A stretch of DNA of 64,000 nucleotides, from positions 390,009 through 454,008 of the forward strand of contig CBDBDK010000002.1 of assembly GCA_965203745.1 (NCBI GenBank), in the 5' to 3' direction. This document shows, in pieces, positions 11,932 through 29,327 of this stretch. Every line of letters begins with the position of its first letter. The stretch's first letter is position 1. A model generated the notes under the pieces. That model had not been told where the DNA came from and did no database searches. It was given only the letters and a program-made list of their open reading frames with translations. This DNA comes from an uncultured Candidatus Binatia bacterium (GTDB taxonomy: Bacteria > Desulfobacterota > Binatia > Bin18). Both the position numbers and the translations under genes were made by a program.

Positions 11932-13929
11932 ATGAAAAAGGGACTGCTGGTTGCGCCGGAATTCCCGGCTGATTCCTTCTGGAGCTTTAAGTATGTGATG
12001 AAGTACATCCGGCGCAAAGCTCCGTTCCCACCCCTTGGGCTGCTGACCTTCGCGGCCCTGATGCCACAGGATGAATGGGAATTTGAACTGGTTGATCTGA
12101 ATGTCGGGCGACTCTCGTCTCAGCAGCTCCAAAAAAAAATCCAGGACAGCGACACTGTCTTTGCCGGGGCGATGAATGTCCAACGCGACTCCCTCGTTGA
12201 GCTTCTCAAAGGACCGGCCCACGGTACGGACACCCCCTGGGTTCTTGGCGGGCCCCTGGCCTCGACCTATCGCAGCTCCATTATGGACCCGCGGAACGAG
12301 CAGGATGCGGTGCTGCATCGAGGTCTCGACTACCTGGTCTGGGGAGAGGCGAGTCCGTGGATTGCCGAGCTGAACCGTCGCCTGGAGGAAACCCCCACAC
12401 ATAGCGACGCGTCCCCCTTTCTCTTCATTCCCGAACGAGTCCTCAACGAACCCGAGGCATCCCGCAAGTATCTCCAGGACCGTTCAATTTTCGAACCTTT
12501 TGACGGCCTGCCCAGCCCGCGCTGGGATTTGATTGATGTCGGTCACTACCGCGCCTTGATGTTGCAAACAACCGCCGGCTGCCGCTTTCGGTGTAATTTC
12601 TGTGACATCATTCAGTTCAACGGCGGATTCCCCCGGGCAAAGGGGGGAACCGATGTCACGCGGGAATTACAAGCCATCTATGACACCGGCTTTCGGGGCG
12701 GGGTGTTCACGGTTGACGATAATTTCGTGTCCGAACCCAAGGCCATGGAAGAGATCCTGGACGCGATGACGGAATTCCAGCGTCAGCACGACTATCCCTT
12801 TGAATTTTTTACCCAGGCAAGTATTGACCTGGGCAAGGAGTCGCTGGCCTATCTGGTGCCCCTGATGCAGCAGGCCGGGTTTGCCACCGTCTTCCTGGGA
12901 ATCGAGAATCCTGACCCCGCGGCACTGCGGCAGATGAATAAGATCCAGAATATCAAAACCGCGCCAAAGGATACGATTGGCTTGCTCCAGAAAAATGGCA
13001 TTGAGGTCCAGGCCGGCTTTATCTTTGGGGCCGATACCGATACCCGACAGACGGCTGACAATATTGTAGACTTTGTCGAAAAGAATGGGGTCTTCTCGGC
13101 CATGACCGGCACCTTGACCCCGCTGCCGCATACCCCGCTGTATGTCGAATTGAAAGAGCAGGGCCGTCTGCTCGAAGCGGAGCTGGCATGTAATAATGTT
13201 GACGACACCGTCCAGTTCAAGCCCCTGATGGGCGCCGATAATTTGCAGAGCGGCTTTCTCCATATCCTGGAGTCCCTATTCAGCCAGCAGGCCATGTATG
13301 GACGGGCGGAGCGCCTGATAGGTCGTCTGGATACCCATATTTTTACGAACAGCCATCTTGATATGGGCCAGGTCTTGGCGGCGTTGCGCTCGTTTGCCAG
13401 GCAGGGCTTGGGCGGATTGTGGACGAAGGAACAGCGGGGCTACTTCCATCTGCTCAGGCGCGCCGTTCAGCTTGACCGACAATTCCTGCGGGATATCCAC
13501 TCGGAGGCCCGGAATCTGGGTTCCTATTGGGACAAGATGGGGGCCGCGGCTAAGAATTATATCGAGTTGGACGGGCAAGATGCGAAGCGGTTTGCCGAGA
13601 TGCTGTCCTATGCCCAGGATGCTTTGGTGCGCTGCCGGCCCGACATGGGTCTGACCGAAGTCCAGGATTTTGTCCAACGCGTGCGAGAAGCGGTTGCCCA
13701 AGGCGTCCTGCCACGCGCCGAAGCCCAATCGGTCTATGAAGCCGCCCGCGAGTATTTGCATACGAAACGTGCCCTGTTTCAGTTTCCAGGGTCACACCTC
13801 GTTAAGGCTCTTGAATTGTCCATTGTCGGTATTCACTACGGAACGGTGGTGGAGCACGTGCTCACCAAAATGCGTGAGGGACGTGGGCTGACGCTTTCCA
13901 CCGAACCCATGAGCACGCGGCCGGTATAG
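11932..13929 (+). CDS. B12-binding radical SAM protein (DUF4070/HpnP-like subfamily) with C-terminal helical extension
   Basis: SFWSF..PPLGLLT B12 domain, CRFRCNFC, VDDNF, FLGIE, GFIFGAD. Confidence 0.88.
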   Translation: MKKGLLVAPEFPADSFWSFKYVMKYIRRKAPFPPLGLLTFAALMPQDEWEFELVDLNVGRLSSQQLQKKIQDSDTVFAGAMNVQRDSLVELLKGPAHGTDTPWVLGGPLASTYRSSIMDPRNEQDAVLHRGLDYLVWGEASPWIAELNRRLEETPTHSDASPFLFIPERVLNEPEASRKYLQDRSIFEPFDGLPSPRWDLIDVGHYRALMLQTTAGCRFRCNFCDIIQFNGGFPRAKGGTDVTRELQAIYDTGFRGGVFTVDDNFVSEPKAMEEILDAMTEFQRQHDYPFEFFTQASIDLGKESLAYLVPLMQQAGFATVFLGIENPDPAALRQMNKIQNIKTAPKDTIGLLQKNGIEVQAGFIFGADTDTRQTADNIVDFVEKNGVFSAMTGTLTPLPHTPLYVELKEQGRLLEAELACNNVDDTVQFKPLMGADNLQSGFLHILESLFSQQAMYGRAERLIGRLDTHIFTNSHLDMGQVLAALRSFARQGLGGLWTKEQRGYFHLLRRAVQLDRQFLRDIHSEARNLGSYWDKMGAAAKNYIELDGQDAKRFAEMLSYAQDALVRCRPDMGLTEVQDFVQRVREAVAQGVLPRAEAQSVYEAAREYLHTKRALFQFPGSHLVKALELSIVGIHYGTVVEHVLTKMREGRGLTLSTEPMSTRPV

Positions 13930-19431: not shown

Positions 19432-20590
19432 TCAGTATAGAGCCGCTTCTACTCGTTCCCGCAGGCCGCGCAGCCGACTGACGGGTTCGTTTGAGAAGAC
19501 AAAGCGGACAAAGTTTGCGCTCCGCTCACTGCCCCAGCCCGTCATGGCCGTCGCCGCGATTTTCCCCTTCTCCAACAGGCGCTGAGAGGCCTCCGCACCC
19601 GTCAGGCCGAAACCCGAGACATCCAGCAGCATGGACCAGCCGCCTTGGGGCTTGACGATGGGGAAGCCCTCAAGTTCGTGCAGAATCGTATCTCGCCGGT
19701 GCTGCCATTCCGCGCTGGCCGCGGCAATATCAGTGTCGGGCGCTTGCAGCGCTACGGTTGCCGCGGCCTGAGCGATGCCGACCGGGCAGACCACGTTGGA
19801 GATATTCACCAGACCGATATCATCGATAATGGCGGGCGGGGCAACGATCCAGCCGACCCGCCAGCCTATCATCCGGTATTCCTTGGAGACCGCACCAACC
19901 GTAATGGTCCGCTGGGCCATACCGGGGAGCGCAGGCCGGGTGCGTGGAGTCCAGGCCGTCGAACAGAATGCGTTCCATGGCGCTGTCATACAGCAGCCAC
20001 GCGTCAGCCTCCTGGCAGGCCGCACAGATGCTGTCCCAGTCCTGGCGCGTAAAGACGGCGCCGGTCGGCATGGAAGGGCTCATCATCAGCAGGACTTTTG
20101 TCTTGGCGGTCACGGCCTGCCGTAACCGGTCACGGTCTAAACGCCAGACGCCGTCTTCAATCTGGTACGGCGCAAAAACCGGCACCCCGCCGGCCAGACG
20201 CACACGGTTGACCAGACCAATATAGATCGGGTCGGTGAGGATGACCTCATCTCCGGGCTCAAGCAGAGCCAACAGCACGTTGAGAATGCCGTTCAGGCCG
20301 CCCGCGCTGACAATGGTGGAATTCCGCCAGTCATACTCCACACCCGAGAGGCGACTGACGAGGGCGGCGGCCGCCTGCCGTAGGGCGTCGGCACCCAGAA
20401 ACGGCAGATAGCTGTTGGCGTCGTCTTCGCCTACCGCCTGCCGGGTCGCTTCTTCCACTCCGGGCGGCGGCCGCAGGTCGGTGTCGAGATTCTCCAAACG
20501 CAGTATCGCTCCGTCCTGGGACTGGTCCGCCAGATTACCCATGCGGTCAACCCCAATCCCGGCCATGCCTGACAGACGACTCACTGGCAT
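19432..20590 (-). pseudogene. PLP-dependent class I/II aminotransferase, frameshifted (or sequence error)
   Basis: N-part (..YDSAMERILFDGLDSTHPA) and C-part (LPGMAQRTITVGAVSKEYRMIGWRVG) join if one base is removed at ~19930-19933. Confidence 0.85.
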
Positions 20591-20684
20591 CGTGCCCTCC
20601 TCTCGCAAACGACTATCTGCATAACGCCTTTTCGGCTAGAATGCAGCCCGACCACGCCAGGACGAGGGAGAGAAAGGATACGCC

Positions 20685-21785
20685 ATGAAATTCGGAGGTT
20701 CGCTGATTTGTCAGAACTATTTCCGGTCGCCCCGACCGGACCACGAGATTTACGCCGAAGACCTGGCCCTGGCCGAAATGTACGAAGACCTCGGGTTCGA
20801 TATGGTCTGGTCGGTGGAGCATCATTTCACGGACTACGAACTCATTCCCGACCCGGTGCAGATGCTCAGCTATGTGTGTGGACGGACCAAGAAGATCGGA
20901 CTTGGCACGTTTGTGATCGTGCTGCCCTGGCACGACCCGGTGCGGGTCGCCGAGCAGATTGCCATGCTGGATAATTTTGCGCGCGGACGCGAGCTGCTGC
21001 TGGGCTTCGGGCGCGGCGCCGCCCAGGTGGAGTACGACGGCTTTCGGGTCTCGATGAGCGAGGCGCGCGAGCGCCTGATCGAGAGTATCGAGGTTGTGAA
21101 GTGCGCCCTCGGACAGGATCGTTTTTCCTTTGCCGGCACATATTTCAACATCCCGGAGATGCGCATTCGCCCGCGCCCGGTCAGTTCAGACCTGACCGAG
21201 CGGATGTACGGTGCCATTATCAGCCCTGAGACCGGCGAGATCATGGCGCGGGCCGGCTTGGGCATGCTGATCATTCCCCAGAAGAGTTGGGCCGACCACC
21301 TGAAGGACTATGAGGCATATCAGGCGGCGTGCGCCAGATTCGGCACCGTGGCGCGGCGGCCAATTATTACCGCCTGGATCTACTGCTCCGAGGACGAGTC
21401 TGCCCAGGAAGACGGGCGGAAGTGGATCATGGACTATGCCGACACCGCCGTACAGCATTACGCCTTTGACGAACCCGAGCATTTCCGTGCCGCCAAGGGC
21501 TATGAGGCCTATGTCGAGCTTGCCCAGGCCAGCCAGCAGCAGGCCAACGCCTTTCAGCAGGAGTTCGCCAAAACGCAGGTCTTTGGCACCCCGGAGCAGT
21601 GCGTTGCCGCCATCCGGGAGCTGCGCCAGGCCATGAACCCGAGTCAGTTTGTCGGTGTGTTCAAATACGGCAGCCTGCCCAACGACCTGGCCGTCCGCAG
21701 CACCGAGTTGTTTGCGTCACAGGTGATGCCGATCCTCCGGGCGGATGACGCCACGGCCCAGGAGCAGCCGGCGGCCGCCCTCTGA
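20685..21785 (+). CDS. LLM-class flavin-dependent oxidoreductase
   Basis: WSVEHHF, PWHDPVRVAEQIAMLD, GFGRG, FGTPEQC. Confidence 0.92.
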   Translation: MKFGGSLICQNYFRSPRPDHEIYAEDLALAEMYEDLGFDMVWSVEHHFTDYELIPDPVQMLSYVCGRTKKIGLGTFVIVLPWHDPVRVAEQIAMLDNFARGRELLLGFGRGAAQVEYDGFRVSMSEARERLIESIEVVKCALGQDRFSFAGTYFNIPEMRIRPRPVSSDLTERMYGAIISPETGEIMARAGLGMLIIPQKSWADHLKDYEAYQAACARFGTVARRPIITAWIYCSEDESAQEDGRKWIMDYADTAVQHYAFDEPEHFRAAKGYEAYVELAQASQQQANAFQQEFAKTQVFGTPEQCVAAIRELRQAMNPSQFVGVFKYGSLPNDLAVRSTELFASQVMPILRADDATAQEQPAAAL

Positions 21786-21789
21786 GGCC

Positions 21790-21854
21790 CGGAGTAAGGC
21801 CGTCTCATAGGCTGCGGAGAAGAGGACATTGGCATCGAGAAAGGCACGTTTCAC
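21790..21854 (-). pseudogene. Truncated PIN-domain (VapC-like) toxin remnant
   Basis: GTG start 3 nt after antitoxin stop reads MKRAFLDANVLFSAAY (PIN N-terminal motif), then runs into the antisense strand of the LLM gene and stops after 45 aa. Confidence 0.7.
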
Positions 21855-21857
21855 GAC

Positions 21858-22157
21858 TTAGTCTGTTAAAATCCGGTGACGGGGAATTTTATTTGGATCA
21901 AGACCGAGCTTCCGCACCTCTTGGACCGCCTCTGCATAATCGTCCGCGTCAACCGCGTTTGACAGCAGGAATTCTGCTCTGCGCTCTGGAGTATAAATCT
22001 CGACGGGAGTAACGACGGCAGGACGAATAAGAATCCCCTTGGCACACTCCTCAGCAATCACAGAGGAACCTTCTTCGATCCCAAAACGATGCCGGAGACG
22101 GGCTGGCAGGACGACTGTCCCCCGCTTTCCGACTCTGCTGGTTTCAGTAGTTCCCAC
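21858..22157 (-). CDS. AbrB/MazE/SpoVT-family antitoxin
   Basis: SRVGKRGTVVLPARLRHRFGIEEG..GILIRP. Confidence 0.88.
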   Translation of the reverse strand: MGTTETSRVGKRGTVVLPARLRHRFGIEEGSSVIAEECAKGILIRPAVVTPVEIYTPERRAEFLLSNAVDADDYAEAVQEVRKLGLDPNKIPRHRILTD

Positions 22158-22230
22158 GATTTTGCCTGATATTCAGCCTTTCAGGCATTCTACGTTTTCC
22201 CAAAAGGCATAACAAGCGAAAAAGCTGAGC

Positions 22231-24099
22231 CTAGCATTGAGGCGGGTCTGATGCATAACAGTTTATACGCCCGATTGGATATAGGCCGGTAATCACGAAG
22301 TTCTGTAAGGGTTGGGACCATTGCAGTCTGGGGCTCAAACCCTCGGTAGGGAAATCCCACAGATAGTACGCCCGGAAATTCGGCGGACCGTAATAGCCCG
22401 CCCCAAAAATCAATCCGTCGTGGCGGATGACCCAACTGTGCTTGGGCTCTTCTACCCCGCCGGCCGCCGGGTTGGGCCACAGGTAATGGACCCAGTGGCC
22501 GGCCTCGGTCGCCGTGGCAATCGCCTTGCCGATTTCAGAGCCGTCCGAGCCCACAATGGTTTTGCCATCCTGCCCGATCAGGTCGGGCCTGACCGGATGC
22601 GCGAGGAAGAGATCGTGCTCGTCGAGGATGAACACATACCACTCTCCCTCCCACTCTTCCTCAATGCTCGCCTGGCTGTTGTAGTGGGCGACCGTCGCCT
22701 CACGCCCCTCACGGTCGTAGCGGTCCAGTGCGGCTTGTACGAACTTCTGTGTAAAGGTCGCTTTTTCCTCATCCCCCAGCATGTCCTCCCCGAAGGTGGT
22801 GACGGTGACAGAAGATCGTGCGAAGGGAACACCGTCAGCGAGAGCCAGGACGTTATGAGCCCCATCCCCGAGGTTATTCCAGTTCCACAGCAGGCTGAAG
22901 CCGTTATCCGTATCCCCGCAGACCTCTGCGGTATCCTCCCGAACGGTACCGTAGGCGGCGGTGAGCGGCTCCCCGTTGATTTCAATGACAATTTCCTCCA
23001 CGTCACACGCCCAGCCGGAGATTGCAGATATTCCGCTACGGAACGACTGCGGAGTTGGATTCTCCAAGACAGCAGCGATACCAGGGCACCGAGAGGCACC
23101 GAAGTGATAGTAGGGGCAGAAGCGGTACGCGGAGTCAACAAGATGAAATCGGCAGACAGGAGTCGTCGCCTCATAATAGCCCGACACGAAAATGAGCCCG
23201 TCGTGGCGGATCGCCCAACTCCGCTTGGGCTCTTCTTCCGGGCACGTTACATCGCGGGGGGTTGGGTCTGATGCAGAAGGGCCCCGGGGGTGGGGCCATG
23301 AGTAATGAATCCAGTGGCCGGCCTCGGTTGCCGTGGCAATCTCCTTGCCGAACTCAGAGCCGTCCGAGTCGACCAGGGTTTTGATATCCTGCCCGATCAA
23401 CTCGGGCCTGAGCCGATATGAGACAATGAGATCGTTCTCGTCGATGATGAACATATCCCACGGCCCATAAACGTCCACCGTCTCCCTCAACGGATTGTCA
23501 GAGTCAGTCTGCGACCGGTCATTATAGTAGGCCAGCGTTGCCTCAAGCCCGTCCCGGTCGTAGCGATCCAGCGCGGCTTGTACAAGGTCCTGGGTGAAGG
23601 CTGCTGGATTACCCTGAATCACGAAGTTCTGAAGCGATGGGTACCAGCGGACCCAGGTCTCCTCGCCGGTAGTTGGGAAATCGTCGAGGATATGAACACG
23701 TGAACCCTGAGCCTCGCGCAGAAACGGCGTGCCAAAGGTGGTCACGGTAACCGTGGCCGTCCCGAACTCTACCCCATCAGACAAGGCCCGGACCGTATGC
23801 GCTCCATCTCCATTGTTGCTCCAGTTCCACAGCAAGCTGAAGCCGTTATCGGTATCACCACACATCTCCTGGGTGTCCTCGCGCGGCGTGCCGTAGGCCG
23901 CATTGAAGGACATATCGTCAATCTCGATAATAATATTCTCGGCGTCACAGGCCCACCCGGAGATCACCGAGACGCCGCTTTGGTACGAATCGGGCGCGGG
24001 GTTTTCCAACATCGCCCTGCCGTTCCCGGTCTGAGCAGAGGCTACTCCGCTCCACAGCAGCACACACAACGCAACCGCCGTCAATATGCTTTTCTTCAT
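22231..24099 (-). CDS. Secreted protein with two LENP/SGWAC beta-rich domains and two Cache-like domains (copy A)
   Basis: Signal peptide ASA/Q; LENP..SGxSxISGWAC twice; FIxDE..HP..GHWxHYxWPxP..PKxSWxIRHDGLIFxSGYY twice. Confidence 0.8.
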   Translation of the reverse strand: MKKSILTAVALCVLLWSGVASAQTGNGRAMLENPAPDSYQSGVSVISGWACDAENIIIEIDDMSFNAAYGTPREDTQEMCGDTDNGFSLLWNWSNNGDGAHTVRALSDGVEFGTATVTVTTFGTPFLREAQGSRVHILDDFPTTGEETWVRWYPSLQNFVIQGNPAAFTQDLVQAALDRYDRDGLEATLAYYNDRSQTDSDNPLRETVDVYGPWDMFIIDENDLIVSYRLRPELIGQDIKTLVDSDGSEFGKEIATATEAGHWIHYSWPHPRGPSASDPTPRDVTCPEEEPKRSWAIRHDGLIFVSGYYEATTPVCRFHLVDSAYRFCPYYHFGASRCPGIAAVLENPTPQSFRSGISAISGWACDVEEIVIEINGEPLTAAYGTVREDTAEVCGDTDNGFSLLWNWNNLGDGAHNVLALADGVPFARSSVTVTTFGEDMLGDEEKATFTQKFVQAALDRYDREGREATVAHYNSQASIEEEWEGEWYVFILDEHDLFLAHPVRPDLIGQDGKTIVGSDGSEIGKAIATATEAGHWVHYLWPNPAAGGVEEPKHSWVIRHDGLIFGAGYYGPPNFRAYYLWDFPTEGLSPRLQWSQPLQNFVITGLYPIGRINCYASDPPQC

Positions 24100-24127
24100 T
24101 TTTGCATTCTCTCAGACCGGCTAGGAA

Positions 24128-25933
24128 TTACGGTAATGATGAGGATAGGGAAATACGTTGCGGCGTCACGCCGGTAATCACAAAGTTCTGCAAGGGTTGA
24201 GACCATTGCACCGTGAGCTTCGATCCCTCGGTAGGAAAGTCCACCAGTTCGTATTCCTGGAAATTAGGCGGGCCGTAATGCCCCGACCCAAAAATCAATC
24301 CGTCGTGGCGGATAACCCACGTATGCTTGGGCTCTTCTTTCCCGTCCGCTACGGGGTGGGGCCACAGGTAATGAATCCAGTGGCCGGCCTCGGTTGCCGT
24401 GGCAATCTCCTTGCCTAGTTCATAGCCGTCCGAGCCGACAATAGTTTTGACATCCCGACCTATCAGTTCAGGCATGACCGGATGCGAGACGAAGAGATCG
24501 TGTTCATCAATGATGAACACATACCACTCCCTATCGACGCTCGCCGAGCTGTTGTGGTAGGCGACCGTTGCCTCACGTCCGTCCCGGTCGTAGAGGTCCA
24601 GCGCAGCTTGCACGAAGTCGCGGGTAAAGGTCGCTTTTTCCTCATCCCCCAGCATGTCATCTCCGAAGGTGGTGACGATGACAGGAGACCACGCGAAGGG
24701 AACGCCATCAATGCGAGCCCGTACGGTATGGACCCCGGCTCCGAGGTTGTTCCAGTTCCATAGCAGACTGAAGCCGTTATCCGTATCCCCGCAGACCTCC
24801 GCGGTATCCTCCCGAATGGTGCCGTAGGCGGCTGTCAGAGGTTCCCCGTTGATTTCAATGACAATTTCCTCCGCGTCACACGCCCAGCCAGAAATTGCGG
24901 ATATCCCGCTGCGAATCGAATCCGGAGTCGGATTCTCCAGGATGGCAGCGATATCAGGAACCCGAGAGTGACCGAGCGGGAAGTATCCGCAGGATGACCC
25001 AAGGCCGTGGGGAAATGTACCACGACGGGCCTTAACCCGTTCATAGTATCCCGATCCAAAAATGAGCCCGTCGTGGCGGATGACCCAACTATGCTTGAGC
25101 TGCTCTTTTTCTTCCCACTCGCACGCTGCGGGGTTGGGCCACAGATAATGAATCCAGTGCCCGGCCTCGGTCGCCCTGGCAATCTCCTTGCCGAACTCAT
25201 AGCCCTCAGAGTCGATGATGGTTTTGATATCCCGACCCATCAACTCAGGCATGACCGGATACGAGACAATAAGATTATCCTCGTCAATGATGAACAGATA
25301 CCACTGCCTATAAACGCCCGGCAACGGGCTGTTAGAGTATATGTTCTCCCGGTCGTTGTAGTAGGCCAGCGTTGCCTCGCGACCGTCCCGACCGTAGCGG
25401 TCCAGTGCGGCCTGCACGAACCCCCGAGTGAAGGCTGCCGGACTATCTCGAATCACGAAGTTCTGAAGGGAGGGGGACCAGTGGATCCGAGTCTCTTCTC
25501 CGGTAGTCGGAAAATCTTCAAGAATATGAACACGCGAACCCTGAGCCCCACGTAGAAACATCGTGCCAAAGGTGGTCACAGTGACAGTGACCGTCCCGAA
25601 CTCCACTCCATCAGACAAGGCCCGGACCATGTGCTCTCCGTCACCACTGTTGCTCCAGTTCCACAGCAAGCTGAAGCCGTTATCGGTATCACCACACATC
25701 TCCTGGGTGTCCTCGCGCAGAGTGCCGTAGGCCGCAAGGAAAGGCTTACTATCAATCTCGATCACAATATTTTCTGCCTCACAGGCCCACCCGGAGATCA
25801 CGGACACTCCGCTCTGGTACGAATCGGGCGCGGGGTTTTCCAACATCGCCATGCCGTTCCCAGTCTGAGCAAAGGCCAACCCACTCCACAGTGTCACCCA
25901 CAACACAACAGCCGTCATTATTCTTTTCTTCAT
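24128..25933 (-). CDS. Secreted LENP/Cache-like domain protein (copy B)
   Basis: Same architecture as copy A, high DNA similarity. Confidence 0.8.
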   Translation of the reverse strand: MKKRIMTAVVLWVTLWSGLAFAQTGNGMAMLENPAPDSYQSGVSVISGWACEAENIVIEIDSKPFLAAYGTLREDTQEMCGDTDNGFSLLWNWSNSGDGEHMVRALSDGVEFGTVTVTVTTFGTMFLRGAQGSRVHILEDFPTTGEETRIHWSPSLQNFVIRDSPAAFTRGFVQAALDRYGRDGREATLAYYNDRENIYSNSPLPGVYRQWYLFIIDEDNLIVSYPVMPELMGRDIKTIIDSEGYEFGKEIARATEAGHWIHYLWPNPAACEWEEKEQLKHSWVIRHDGLIFGSGYYERVKARRGTFPHGLGSSCGYFPLGHSRVPDIAAILENPTPDSIRSGISAISGWACDAEEIVIEINGEPLTAAYGTIREDTAEVCGDTDNGFSLLWNWNNLGAGVHTVRARIDGVPFAWSPVIVTTFGDDMLGDEEKATFTRDFVQAALDLYDRDGREATVAYHNSSASVDREWYVFIIDEHDLFVSHPVMPELIGRDVKTIVGSDGYELGKEIATATEAGHWIHYLWPHPVADGKEEPKHTWVIRHDGLIFGSGHYGPPNFQEYELVDFPTEGSKLTVQWSQPLQNFVITGVTPQRISLSSSLP

Positions 25934-25991
25934 TTTTGCATTCTCTCAGACCGACTAGGAAATACGGTGATGAGGAGGATAGCGGGACACG

Positions 25992-27812
25992 CTACGGCGT
26001 CACGCCGGTAATCGCAAAGTTCTGCAAAGACTGGGACCATTGCACCGTGAGCTTCGAGCCCTCGGCAGGAAAGTCCGCCAGTTCGTATTTCTGAAAATTT
26101 GGCGGGCCGTAATATCCTGACCCGAAAATCAATCCATCGTGACGAATGACCCAACTATGCTTAGGCTCTTCTACCCCGCCGGCCGCCGGGTTGGGCCACA
26201 GGTAATGGACCCAGTGCCCGACCCCGGTTGCCGTGGCAATCTCCTCGCCCAACTCATAGCCGTCGGAACCGACGATGGTTTTGATATCCCGACCGATCAG
26301 TTCGGGCATGACCGGATGCGCGAGGAAGAGATCGTTCTCGTCGAGGATGAACACATACCACTCTTCCTCCCACTCTTCCTCAACGCTCGCTGGGCTGTTG
26401 TAGTGGGCGACCGTCGCCTCACGCCCCTCACGGTCGTAGCGGTCCAGTGCGGCTTGTACGAAGTCCTGGGTAAAGGTGGCTTTTTCCTCATCCCCAAGCA
26501 TTTCATCCCTGAAGGTAGTGACGGTGACAGAAGATCGCGCGAAGGGAACGCCATCAATAAAAGCCAGGACGTTATGAACCCCATCCCCGAGGGTGTTCCA
26601 GTTCCACAACAGGCTGAAGCCGTTATCCGTATCGCCGCAGACCTCTGCGGTATCCGCCCGAACGGTGCCGTAGGCGGCGGTGAGCGGCTCTCCGTTGATT
26701 TCAATGACAATTTCCTCCGCGTCACATGCCCAGCCGGAGATTACGGAGATACCGCTACGGAACGACTGTGGAGTCGGATTCTCCAGGACGGCAGCGATAC
26801 CGGGGCACCGAGAGACGCCGAATGGACCGTAGGGACAGGAGTAGTCGCCGCCAGGAAAAAAATGATGTCGGCAGACAGGATTCGTCGCCTCATAATAGCC
26901 CGACACGAAAATGAGCCCGTCGTGGCGGATCGCCCAACTCCGCTTGGGCTCTTCTTCCGGGCACGTTACATCGCGGGGGGTTGGGATGCCTAGATCTGCC
27001 GAGGGGCCTTGGGGGTGGGGCCACAGGTGATGAATCCAGTGGCCAGCCTCGGTTGCCGTGGCAATCGCCTTGCCGAACTCATGGCCGTCCGAGCCGATAA
27101 GGGTTTTGATATCCTGCCCGATCAACTCAGACCTGGACGGATGCGCAACAATGAGATCGTTCTCGTCGATGATGAGCATATCCCACGGTCCATAAATGTC
27201 CGATGTCAACGAGCTGTCGGAGGAAAGACTCGTCCAGTCGTTATAGTAGGCCAGCATTGCCTCACGCCCGTCCCGGTCGTAGCGGTCCAGTGCGGCTTGC
27301 ATGAAGTCCTGGGTAAAAGCCGCGGGGTTCCCTTGAATCACAAAGTTCTGCAGCGATGGGTACCAGCGGACCCAGGTCTCCTCGCCGGTGGTTGGGAAAT
27401 CGGCGAGAATATAGGAGCCCTGAGCCTCGCGCAGAAACGGCGTGCCAAAGGTGGTCACGGTAACCGTGGCCGTCCCGAACTCTACCCCATCAGACAAGGC
27501 CCGGACCGTATGCTCTCCATCTCCATTGTTGCTCCAGTTCCACAGCAAGCTGAAGCCGTTATCGGTATCACCGCACATCTCCTGGGTGTCCTCGCGCAGA
27601 GTGCCGTAGGCGGCGGTGAAGGACATCTCGTCAATCTCGATCACAATCTCCTCTGCCTCACAGGCCCACCCGGAGATCACCGAGACGCCGCTTTGGTACG
27701 AATCGGGCGCGGGGTTTTCCAACATCGCCCTGCCGTTCCCGGTCTGAGCAAAGACCACTCCGTTCCACAGGGTCACACACAACGCAACCACCGTCAGCAC
27801 TCTCTGTGTCAT
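25992..27812 (-). CDS. Secreted LENP/Cache-like domain protein (copy C)
   Basis: Same architecture as copies A and B; AAGG RBS. Confidence 0.8.
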   Translation of the reverse strand: MTQRVLTVVALCVTLWNGVVFAQTGNGRAMLENPAPDSYQSGVSVISGWACEAEEIVIEIDEMSFTAAYGTLREDTQEMCGDTDNGFSLLWNWSNNGDGEHTVRALSDGVEFGTATVTVTTFGTPFLREAQGSYILADFPTTGEETWVRWYPSLQNFVIQGNPAAFTQDFMQAALDRYDRDGREAMLAYYNDWTSLSSDSSLTSDIYGPWDMLIIDENDLIVAHPSRSELIGQDIKTLIGSDGHEFGKAIATATEAGHWIHHLWPHPQGPSADLGIPTPRDVTCPEEEPKRSWAIRHDGLIFVSGYYEATNPVCRHHFFPGGDYSCPYGPFGVSRCPGIAAVLENPTPQSFRSGISVISGWACDAEEIVIEINGEPLTAAYGTVRADTAEVCGDTDNGFSLLWNWNTLGDGVHNVLAFIDGVPFARSSVTVTTFRDEMLGDEEKATFTQDFVQAALDRYDREGREATVAHYNSPASVEEEWEEEWYVFILDENDLFLAHPVMPELIGRDIKTIVGSDGYELGEEIATATGVGHWVHYLWPNPAAGGVEEPKHSWVIRHDGLIFGSGYYGPPNFQKYELADFPAEGSKLTVQWSQSLQNFAITGVTP

Positions 27813-27997
27813 CCTTGCCTTCTTTCGAGACTACTGGAAATCAGGTAGTGCCTCCGTTTGAGAACGTGTGGCCGGTCAAAACCGAACCGTCCGCCCTCGC
27901 ACCTCCCCCTCGGTCCTTGCGGGCTTCTCTCGGCTCCCCAGGCACGACGCTGACACGCGTACGGGGAGCGCATGGCCCTTCTTACACGACTGGGGCC

Positions 27998-28031
27998 CGG
28001 CTGTCCCTAGTCATTTGACTAGGGACAGCCG
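27998..28031. promoter_or_regulatory. Perfect 16-bp inverted repeat with 2-nt spacer
   Basis: CGGCTGTCCCTAGTCA-TT-TGACTAGGGACAGCCG; function unknown. Confidence 0.5.
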
Positions 28032-28205
28032 CCCTCGCGCCAGCCCTGTCCCGATCCGCGGCGCTCACGGCGGGCGTGGGGAGTTCTCTTCCCCACCCAA
28101 AGCGCGCGGGGCGGGAAGGGCGGGGCGGACACGGCGGCGAAAGAAATTCAAAGGGAGACACTATCGGAAATCACGGTGAGGAGGAGAAATCACGAGCGGC
28201 CCTCA

Positions 28206-29327
28206 TCAAATCCCATAAAACGCGGCGGCATTCGCCCCCAGGATTTTATCGACCGACTGCGTTGGCAGGGCGGAGAGCAACTCGCGCATGGTCTCTACCG
28301 GCTTGGTAAAGCCCTCGGCGTGCGGATAATCCGAGCCGACAAAGAATTTCTCATCTCCGGCAAACTGGACGATATACGGCAGCAGCCTTTCGCTTGGGTC
28401 GGCGTTGATCCAGATATTGCGGGCCAGATATTCTCGAATCGGGCGTTTCATCTGTGAGGTGTGGCGCATGTATTGGTAGCGGTAGTCGAAACGCTCAATC
28501 CACTCCCCAACCCAACTGCCCATGGATTCCACGGTTGCCGCGCGCAATTCGGGAAAGCGCTCAAACACGCCGTCATACACCATGGTGCTCAGCGACATGC
28601 GGGGGTCCTGGATCACATTCATGGAGATAAACATGAAGCCGGGATTACGGTTTTTATACCAGGCGCTGCCGAGGTACTCCTTGTTGCCGGCCGGGTGAAT
28701 GCTGACGGCGATATTGCAGTCCTGGGCGGCTGCCCAGAGCGGATTGTAATCTGGATGGCCGAAGCTTTTGCCATTGATGGGCGCGGAGCCGATCATGATT
28801 GAATGCGCGCCGAGTTTGGCCACGCGTTGGATCTCCCGTACGGCCAGCGTTGGTTCACGGAGGGAGATATGGGCCGCGGGAAAGAGGCGGTCACGATGGC
28901 CGGCGCTGATCTCAAACGCCCAGGTGTTATAGGCCCGACAGAGGGCCGCGGCGAGCTGCGGGTCCTGGACCTCGCCTTCCCATAACAGGCCCATGGTGGG
29001 GTAGAGGACCTGATAATCAATGCCCTCGGCGTCCAGAAACTGCATACGCTTGTCCATGTCCTGCCAGTCGCCGCCCTCGTATAGAGACTGGTCAAACTCG
29101 TTGAGTGCGCTCCCATCTTCCTTCTGTCCATAACCGACGACAATGCTGAGCATCTCGTCGATTTCGCTTCCCAGCCGCATGGATTTATTATCCACCACCA
29201 TGCGCAGCTTGCCGCTGGCGCTATCCTGCTCCACGTGCATGGCCCGCTCGCGGTAGGCCGGCTCAATATACTGGAGGTATAAATTCAGCGGTTCGATCAA
29301 ATGACTGTCGCCGTCAACGATTTTCAT
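28206..29327 (-). CDS. Amidohydrolase_2 family protein
   Basis: IVDGDSHLIEP, AYNTW, FERFPEL, GSDYPHAEG; AAGGAG RBS. Confidence 0.9.
   Translation of the reverse strand: MKIVDGDSHLIEPLNLYLQYIEPAYRERAMHVEQDSASGKLRMVVDNKSMRLGSEIDEMLSIVVGYGQKEDGSALNEFDQSLYEGGDWQDMDKRMQFLDAEGIDYQVLYPTMGLLWEGEVQDPQLAAALCRAYNTWAFEISAGHRDRLFPAAHISLREPTLAVREIQRVAKLGAHSIMIGSAPINGKSFGHPDYNPLWAAAQDCNIAVSIHPAGNKEYLGSAWYKNRNPGFMFISMNVIQDPRMSLSTMVYDGVFERFPELRAATVESMGSWVGEWIERFDYRYQYMRHTSQMKRPIREYLARNIWINADPSERLLPYIVQFAGDEKFFVGSDYPHAEGFTKPVETMRELLSALPTQSVDKILGANAAAFYGI

Follow-up and report, generated by a model that had tools for sequence, protein, structure and literature searches.

Among the extracellular sensor modules of prokaryotes, Cache domains are the most common, and they normally form the ligand-binding input of membrane receptors. 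A stand-alone organisation has been called highly unusual for them, more than 90% being fused to signalling modules, in an account of the sCache_heme proteins (DUF3365/Tll0287), which have a Cache fold without a signalling module or linked partner (10.64898/2026.02.01.703092). In PscD-SD (PDB 5G4Y), a chemoreceptor domain of the sCache_2 type, the carboxylate of the ligand is hydrogen-bonded by Tyr90, His103, Tyr143 and Lys156, and is sandwiched between Trp92 and Trp145 (PMC5062169). Cache domains have also been reported as enriched in sponge-associated Thaumarchaeota, where a role in surface recognition was proposed (PMC7848895). Here we analyse three neighbouring genes, A, B and C, each encoding two sCache_2 domains, in a 64,000 nt stretch of DNA from an uncultured Candidatus Binatia bacterium (the window; GenBank assembly GCA_965203745.1, contig CBDBDK010000002.1, positions 390,009 to 454,008). 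We propose, with a probability of about one half, that their products are exported, non-signalling ligand-binding proteins that carry one constant and one variable pocket on an immunoglobulin (Ig)-like scaffold and capture small acids at the cell envelope. They most likely bind rather than signal, because their Cache domains lack a signalling part and sit on an Ig-like module that is shared by dozens of exported proteins.

The ORF (open reading frame) listing of the window shows three intact head-to-tail genes on the minus strand, separated by 28 nt (A-B) and 58 nt (B-C). They lie exactly where a first-pass annotation of the window had placed three paralogues of about 600 residues (622, 601 and 606 aa), and their products are 74% (A vs B), 84% (A vs C) and 76% (B vs C) identical. 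At the DNA level the array is a six-fold repeat, with two half-units per gene displaying 63-95% identity, far above chance. Each protein begins with a signal-peptide-like hydrophobic segment that ends in A-x-A before QTG, and continues with a first copy of the module here called LENP (LENP1), an sCache_2 domain (Cache1), a cysteine-rich variable linker, a second LENP module (LENP2) and a second sCache_2 domain (Cache2). The match of our own hidden Markov model (HMM) to LENP2 is split, with HMM positions 1-115 before Cache2 and 105-132 after it, which indicates that Cache2 is nested inside LENP2, between its Ig-like core and three-strand tail. The LENP and Cache copies listed by the first-pass annotation were recovered by our HMM and Pfam, but the last step of its domain order must be amended, as Cache2 does not simply follow LENP2. 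A crude hydropathy scan of the three proteins found no transmembrane (TM)-like segment past the N-terminal stretch, and Pfam and NCBIfam found no kinase, methyl-accepting chemotaxis protein (MCP), cyclase or other output domain in them, as had been claimed; a Cache-type transmembrane sensor was rejected on these two grounds. The N-terminal hydrophobic stretch makes the proteins look exported, in agreement with the earlier description of them as soluble or surface proteins.

The Cache-like domains are sCache_2 domains by HMM, fold and pocket residues. Pfam identified two sCache_2/dCache_2 stretches per protein (whole-protein E 2e-13 to 8e-17, 51-62 bits against cut-offs of 25-26.5), and sCache_2 itself (PF17200) scored 55.6, 56.9 and 51.0 bits for the three proteins against a cut-off of 25. 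The only NCBIfam match was to the MctS kinase model, by its sensor part alone and at 22-29.5 bits against a cut-off of 700. An AlphaFold2 (AF2) model of the gene B product, built from an 81-sequence alignment, has a mean predicted local distance difference test score (pLDDT) of 69.7, with both Cache domains at about 80-97; in each of these a helix (residues 165-193 and 431-460) is followed by a sheet, as in the Cache fold. In the PDB, Foldseek matched the model best to solved sensor domains of the sCache_2 type (2qhk/4exo, TlpB 3ub6-9, 4k08 and 5g4y; E ~1e-6, target-normalised TM-score (TMt) 0.55-0.68), of which 5g4y was also matched by the sequence of gene B Cache2 at E 3.9e-7, while an ESM Atlas search with the gene B protein (P0001) gave no usable match. 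Pfam, AlphaFold and Foldseek therefore agree with the first-pass annotation that these are Cache folds, and narrow the assignment to sCache_2.

Alignment to 5g4y and 4k08, with the PscD chain numbering fixed by matching the named residues, places the equivalents of the PscD tetrad in gene B Cache2 at Y471, H484, Y522 and K536, and shows F473 and W524 at the sandwich positions. Across the wider family described below, Y, H, Y and K are kept at the four tetrad positions in 378, 328, 384 and 387 of 427 Cache repeats, respectively. Cache2 reads YHYK in all three window proteins and in 42 of 43 close homologues, whereas Cache1 reads YYYK in gene B, DYYK in gene A and DHHK in gene C, and among 45 close homologues is YHYK in only 23, with 11 other combinations represented. 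Each protein therefore couples one constant pocket of carboxylate type with one variable pocket. The mean pairwise identity among 46 homologues is 88.8% for the first Ig-like module and 86.7% for the second, 79.7% for Cache2, 75.6% for Cache1 and 31.3% for the linker.

A six-frame search of the genome returned six sCache_2 domain matches, all of them in genes A, B and C and four of them above the cut-off. The genome is 96.7% complete, and in it there was no dCache_1 match and no MCPsignal match above the Pfam cut-off; the organism thus seems to lack chemoreceptors. As the only sCache_2 domains of this organism are output-less and exported, and belong to a family of more than 1000 proteins in several phyla, we argue for a non-signalling use of the fold. 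The proteins might instead act as co-receptors or in substrate delivery, a ligand-loaded Cache protein docking on a membrane transducer or transporter encoded elsewhere, in the manner of the periplasmic binding proteins of some sensor kinases, chemoreceptors and carriers. Their apparent export and the retention of ligand-type pockets would suit such a role, and solute-binding proteins are reported to serve both transporters and signalling proteins (PMC8050422). We consider this possible but unlikely. No signalling or transport gene, whether for a permease, a kinase or another membrane protein, adjoins the array in the window or the corresponding loci of three syntenic Binatia genomes (G204, G201 and G202), which bears out the first-pass claim that there is no adjacent partner gene; and no permease is found among the four most recurrent neighbour clusters (ThrRS, M20 peptidase, ceramidase-like and PhyH) of 42 loci of a related subfamily (P0112). 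The lack of an MCP domain above cut-off in the genome also speaks against such a role.

The output-less arrangement is not special to this locus. A search with gene B identified 1092 proteins at E <=1e-3 among 8000 scored candidates, including approximately 48 homologues that share the window architecture (64-92% identity). Among the 120 matches listed, 65 have no LENP module and consist only of 4-7 tandem Cache domains; 64 of these have an N-terminal hydrophobic stretch, 27 a lipobox-like Cys and 3 a later TM-like segment, and S-layer homology (SLH) domains were present in 2 of the 15 LENP-less arrays scanned with Pfam. These array relatives are 28-38% identical to the window query over about 65% of its length. 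Related loci occur in metagenome-assembled genomes (MAGs) of Chloroflexota, Caldilineaceae, Dehalococcoidia, Tepidiformaceae and Limisphaerales, and the named matches include 'hypothetical proteins' of Gemmatimonadetes and Chloroflexi. Tethered output-less Cache arrays are therefore widespread, and since the arrays found elsewhere have a lipobox, SLH domains or an anchor at the N-terminus as their tether, LENP in the Binatia stands where the tether would be. Other variants include two proteins in which a single LENP module precedes two directly tandem Cache domains (P0052 and P0058), an 898-aa ORF at a non-syntenic locus (L057; G203 C8:551693-554389), and three separate Cache-protein matches at G202 C1:443258-445036, one of which contains a TAA. 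Open-access papers and preprints yielded no account of tandem sCache_2 arrays that lack an output, nor one of the Ig-like module of the Binatia, and the architecture was not found to belong to a characterised family with a known transducer partner.

The LENP module (motif LENP..SGWAC..CGD) comprises about 133 residues, 12 of which, including two Cys, are invariant in an alignment of 36 genomic copies. An AF2 model based on that alignment (pLDDT 92.8, predicted TM-score (pTM) 0.78) forms an Ig-like sandwich. Its best VIA-align match is 6tn6 (Z 11.3, root-mean-square deviation 1.8 over 84 residues), with further matches to the Ig-like domain of sulfite oxidase (Z 9.8) and the Fn3-like module of CbhA (Z 9.5). 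These matches, to accessory modules from glycoside hydrolases and to the sulfite-oxidase domain, cover model residues 1-95 only. Foldseek returned only generic Ig/fn3 matches (E >=2.9e-4, query-normalised TM-score (TMq) <=0.49). On this model, LENP is a beta-sandwich of the Ig-like/E-set kind that probably bears a disulfide. No sequence family in Pfam or NCBIfam captures it, and a PDB sequence search with its profile returned nothing significant (best E 0.067). Big_7 (PF17957) was rejected as its identity, since it scores 18.3-20.5 bits against a cut-off of 24.1 and matches over profile positions 38-70 only.

LENP is not confined to an architecture with Cache domains, as the genome-wide count shows. 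An HMM iterated on the ORFs of the window's genome identified 59 LENP stretches in 45 ORFs with unrelated fusions. Twenty of the 36 other LENP-bearing ORFs scanned with Pfam contain further families, the remaining 16 having no Pfam match. The partners include ankyrin (Ank) and leucine-rich repeats (LRR), matrixin, FGE-sulfatase, staphylococcal nuclease (SNase), beta-lactamase-family, GDSL lipase, di-haem oxidoreductase (DHOR), imelysin, META, BACON/MAM, cadherin/fn3/arylsulfotransferase, and PD40 and other propellers. The module lies at the N-terminus (after the signal peptide) or the C-terminus, often paired, and 29 of the 38 LENP ORFs with 200 aa or more begin with what looks like a signal peptide. 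Among 1.84 billion cluster representatives, 2184 contain LENP at E <=1e-3 and 1823 at 1e-10, most of them with two stretches at one end of a protein of 270-2363 aa. Its distribution is nevertheless restricted to one clade: LENP was detected in 1 of 201 genomes of a phylum-wide sample, that one being the window's own, and in 31 of 151 genomes of a class-wide sample, all belonging to two Binatia families (16/18 in family f1 and 14/18 in f88, compared to 0/114 in 17 other families). The nearest LENP-bearing public records are Candidatus Binatia MAGs, and five of these each have 42-132 matches with the whole protein as query at E <=1e-10, those listed consisting mostly of the LENP module. Because about 45 unrelated exported proteins of this genome share it, LENP most likely serves them all as scaffold, tether or address in the envelope of the cell. 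Some LENP genes are themselves clustered as adjacent ORFs, some of them fragments (G000 C1:1081928-1089484, C1:2574933-2577561 and C1:1504195-1507944); among these are neighbouring DHOR and imelysin genes, both encoding an N-terminal LENP-like stretch.

An adhesin-like role is also conceivable, in which the carboxylate pockets would bind acidic groups of polymers (host or matrix glycans, or the cell wall), the Ig-like modules would serve as spacers, and the proteins would bring about attachment and not the capture of metabolites. Tandem repetition of modules is a pattern typical of binders of repetitive ligands, and the relatives with 4-7 tandem copies retain the same conserved pocket residues. 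In addition, LENP is common to Ank, LRR, cadherin and fn3 proteins, its Ig-like core resembles the accessory modules of glycoside hydrolases, and related sequences occur in sponge and coral metagenome runs. We nonetheless regard this role as distinctly unlikely, as Pfam and NCBIfam found no carbohydrate-binding family. Moreover, those sCache_2 pockets that have been characterised take C2-C3 acids into a closed site, as the Trp sandwich of PscD shows (PMC5062169), and a polymer would hardly fit into such a pocket.

Three Binatia genomes (G204, G201 and G202) are syntenic with the window over approximately 20 kb, with flanking proteins mostly 82-98% identical. Each has one Cache gene, situated between the amidohydrolase and the luciferase-like monooxygenase (LLM)/aminotransferase genes and 73-75% identical to the window copies. 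In pairwise Nei-Gojobori comparisons, based on DNA of six homologues, the Cache genes show nonsynonymous divergence (dN) of 0.10-0.18, synonymous divergence (dS) of 0.29-0.69 and dN/dS of 0.24-0.33, compared to dN of 0.009-0.06, dS of 0.14-0.54 and dN/dS of 0.03-0.20 in seven flanking genes; change in the Cache proteins is thus several- to ~20-fold faster. By domain, dN/dS is 0.14-0.30 in Cache2 and 0.36-1.24 in the linker. Domain-wide positive selection was rejected, as pairwise dN/dS is below 1 in every structured domain and reaches about 1 only in the poorly aligned linker, and selection on the structured domains is purifying. Since the three ORFs are intact and dN/dS is 0.24-0.33, we take the genes to be functional. 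The first-pass description of the family as diversifying therefore applies to the linker and the Cache1 pocket, and not to the conserved Cache2 tetrad or to the genes as a whole.

In a maximum likelihood (ML) tree of 46 full-length homologues, A, B and C do not form one clade: B pairs with P0004 (100/100), C with P0030 (97/100) and A with a representative of its own cluster. The tree rejects a recent lineage-specific triplication, and the three copies are old paralogues. Within family f1 the gene is present in 8 of 41 genomes, with six domain matches in the window's genome and two in each of the seven others. The family had also been called amplified, which is true of the window's genome with its three copies, but the other seven are single-copy and the copies are old rather than the product of a recent burst. 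The longest contig is 106,369 for three homologue clusters and 15,046 for two, and such sharing of a longest contig is consistent with, but no proof of, Cache gene arrays in other genomes. It is highly improbable that there is no ligand, whether because the Cache folds only serve a surface protein as scaffold or because the array is on its way to being lost: the patchy distribution, the raised dN and the replacement of Cache1 anchor residues in two of the three copies could be read in this way, but not the intact ORFs, the low dN/dS overall and in Cache2, or the near-universal Cache2 tetrad.

We therefore favour capture of small acids by exported binding proteins, and envisage it as follows. 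Proteins A, B and C would be exported via the Sec pathway, as predicted from their N-termini. Cache2 would provide a constant pocket that holds a carboxylate group by the same residues as in characterised chemoreceptor sCache_2 domains, while Cache1 would provide a pocket that differs between paralogues. The two LENP modules, Binatia-specific and probably disulfide-stapled, would carry the pockets and act as envelope scaffold, tether or address. Small organic acids or carboxylate-bearing metabolites would thereby be captured or retained at the envelope, and no signal would be passed on by A, B and C themselves. In this scheme it is export and final location, ligand binding, the class of ligand and anchoring by the Ig-like module that we infer.

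Several points weigh against the scheme. The signal peptides were called by eye and hydropathy only, and the anchoring role of LENP is read solely from its promiscuity and position. The equivalence to Lys156 needs a register shift, for which the 4k08 alignment was followed and not that to 5g4y. In Cache1 of genes A and C an Asp replaces the equivalent of Tyr90, so that this pocket may bind no carboxylate, or nothing. Residues 556-601 of the gene B model have pLDDT <50, making the nested arrangement a low-confidence one, and the fold matches of LENP are generic Ig/E-set ones, the last ~40 residues having matched nothing in those fold searches. Finally, the absence of an adjacent partner gene is compatible with a partner encoded elsewhere.

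Taking the Cache and LENP results together, we tentatively suggest a broader picture, in which a (probably host-associated) Binatia clade would run a lineage-specific display system, with approximately 40-130 unrelated exoproteins per genome bearing one Ig-like address module. The Cache proteins would be its metabolite-reading members, in which a carboxylate site stays fixed while the other site evolves, and the paralogues would form a small repertoire that captures or recognises metabolites of the host or community on the surface of the cell, without signal transduction. If this picture is correct, Cache domains, known as sensor inputs, would also be widespread plain extracellular binding modules, a non-signalling use for which we found no description in the literature covered. 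The pair of constant and variable pockets offers a concrete and testable handle on ligand specificity. LENP itself is an uncatalogued domain with more than 2000 cluster representatives, found in two Binatia families only. A large part of this lineage's exoproteome carries it, and its target would reveal how the surface of these bacteria is organised.

Table 1. Coordinates of the Cache genes and their domains in the window (SP, signal peptide).
Feature	Positions	Strand	Description	Basis
Gene A	22231-24099	-	622 aa, P0002; SP, LENP1, Cache1, linker, LENP2 core, Cache2, LENP2 tail	ORF, Pfam, own HMMs
Gene A LENP1	23614-24015	-	residues 29-162	own HMM
Gene A Cache1	23170-23610	-	residues 164-310; tetrad D-Y-Y-K	alignment
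Gene A LENP2 core	22732-23073	-	residues 343-456	own HMM
Gene A Cache2	22387-22770	-	residues 444-571; tetrad Y-H-Y-K	Pfam, alignment
Gene A LENP2 tail	22291-22371	-	residues 577-603	own HMM
Gene B	24128-25933	-	601 aa, P0001; architecture as gene A, Cache1 loop and linker shorter	ORF, Pfam, own HMMs, AF2 model
Gene B predicted signal peptide	25868-25933	-	residues 1-22, ends ..AFA before QTG	sequence, hydropathy
Gene B LENP1	25448-25849	-	residues 29-162; Ig-like sandwich, two invariant Cys, three-strand tail	HMM, alignment, AF2 pLDDT 92.8, fold matches
Gene B Cache1	25040-25444	-	residues 164-298; tetrad Y-Y-Y-K	Pfam, AF2, alignment
Gene B variable Cys-containing linker	24947-25039	-	residues 299-329	identity 31% (46 homologues), dN/dS 0.36-1.24, pLDDT <50
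Gene B LENP2 core	24605-24946	-	residues 330-443; HMM positions 1-115	own HMM
Gene B Cache2	24272-24643	-	residues 431-554; tetrad Y471-H484-Y522-K536	Pfam, AF2, Foldseek, alignment
Gene B LENP2 tail	24176-24259	-	residues 559-586; HMM positions 105-132; after nested Cache2	own HMM; low model confidence
Gene C	25992-27812	-	606 aa, P0003; architecture as gene A	ORF, Pfam, own HMMs
Gene C LENP1	27333-27728	-	residues 29-160	own HMM
Gene C Cache1	26889-27329	-	residues 162-308; tetrad D-H-H-K	alignment
Gene C LENP2 core	26451-26792	-	residues 341-454	own HMM
Gene C Cache2	26106-26489	-	residues 442-569; tetrad Y-H-Y-K	Pfam, alignment
Gene C LENP2 tail	26010-26093	-	residues 574-601	own HMM

A scan of positions 21700-28400 found no promoter or terminator site between the three genes or at the start of the array; the region contains 6 promoter-like sites compared to 2.5 expected, and 7 terminator-like sites compared to 5.5 expected. 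Contigs from the RNA libraries X12 (coral metagenome) and X22 (sponge metagenome) match the genes in part, with 90-99% likeness, which is only a weak hint of transcription of A, B, C or close relatives, because such libraries can hold DNA and the contigs show neither strand nor level; a lack of cover carries no information.

The neighbours of the array in the window encode luciferase-like monooxygenases, an Amidohydro_2 protein, an alpha/beta hydrolase, SnoaL-like proteins, an MR/MLE enzyme, an aminotransferase and a MazE-type antitoxin. The class I/II aminotransferase is divided between two overlapping ORFs (19432-20025 and 19820-20608, minus strand) and is a single 391-aa ORF in G204; in the window's genome the gene is either frameshifted or a pseudogene, or else misassembled. 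The MazE/AbrB-type antitoxin gene (21858-22157, minus strand) is followed by the start of a PIN-like gene (~21720-21854, minus strand) that stops after 45 codons, which suggests a truncated toxin; G204 lacks the pair at this position, with ~450 nt lying between its Cache gene and LLM gene. Between the amidohydrolase gene and gene C is an intergenic insert of ~332 nt (27838-28169) with a perfect 13-bp hairpin, which is skipped by contigs of X22 and X4 (27825-28173, 27837-28170) and corresponds to a short spacer in G204. Partial copies (71-77% identity) lie at G000 C1:826991 and C4:520971, and the insert may be a small mobile or repeat element. Further away, the region 11932-13929 (plus strand) encodes a B12-binding radical SAM protein with DUF4070 and then a DUF2889 protein, with no relation to the Cache array.

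The closest known counterparts of the window proteins are the chemoreceptor sCache_2 domains of PscD-SD (5G4Y/5G4Z), Adeh_3718 (4K08), a V. parahaemolyticus MCP (2QHK/4EXO) and H. pylori TlpB (3UB6-9), which belong to the same Pfam family and have the same fold. They have in common with Cache2 of the window the Tyr/His/Tyr/Lys carboxylate residues and, as the signal peptide implies, a probable extracytoplasmic location. However, the chemoreceptor domains lie between two TM helices and are coupled to a cytoplasmic output, whereas the window proteins are apparently soluble and exported, with two domains and neither TM helix nor output, and differ further in their Ig-like fusions and the altered anchor residues of Cache1. 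Proteins of the stand-alone sCache_heme type bind a c-type heme via CXXCH and, according to the preprint cited above, are apparently redox-related, whereas the window proteins have a small-ligand pocket of the sCache_2 type; an sCache_heme identity was rejected because CXXCH is absent from all three translations. The nearest relatives in organisation are the output-less arrays of Chloroflexota, Caldilineaceae, Dehalococcoidia, Limisphaerales and Gemmatimonadota, which have the same Cache subtype and pocket residues and are likewise exported without an output, but these are plain, tethered tandems of 4-7 Cache domains, whereas the window proteins have two, interleaved with (and one of them nested in) an Ig-like module specific to the Binatia.

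Periplasmic solute-binding proteins (SBPs) share the proposed principle of an exported, output-less small-molecule binder, but they are two-lobed flytraps rather than Cache folds; ABC, TRAP and TTT types were rejected for the window proteins because Pfam and NCBIfam found no SBP family in them and no transporter or sensor gene adjoins the array in the window, with no transporter nearby in the three syntenic genomes either. LENP, for its part, differs from anchoring modules of the SLH type in that Pfam, NCBIfam and the PDB contain nothing related to it by sequence and that it was found in two Binatia families only, but has in common with them that one module recurs, often paired, at the termini of dozens of unrelated exported proteins.

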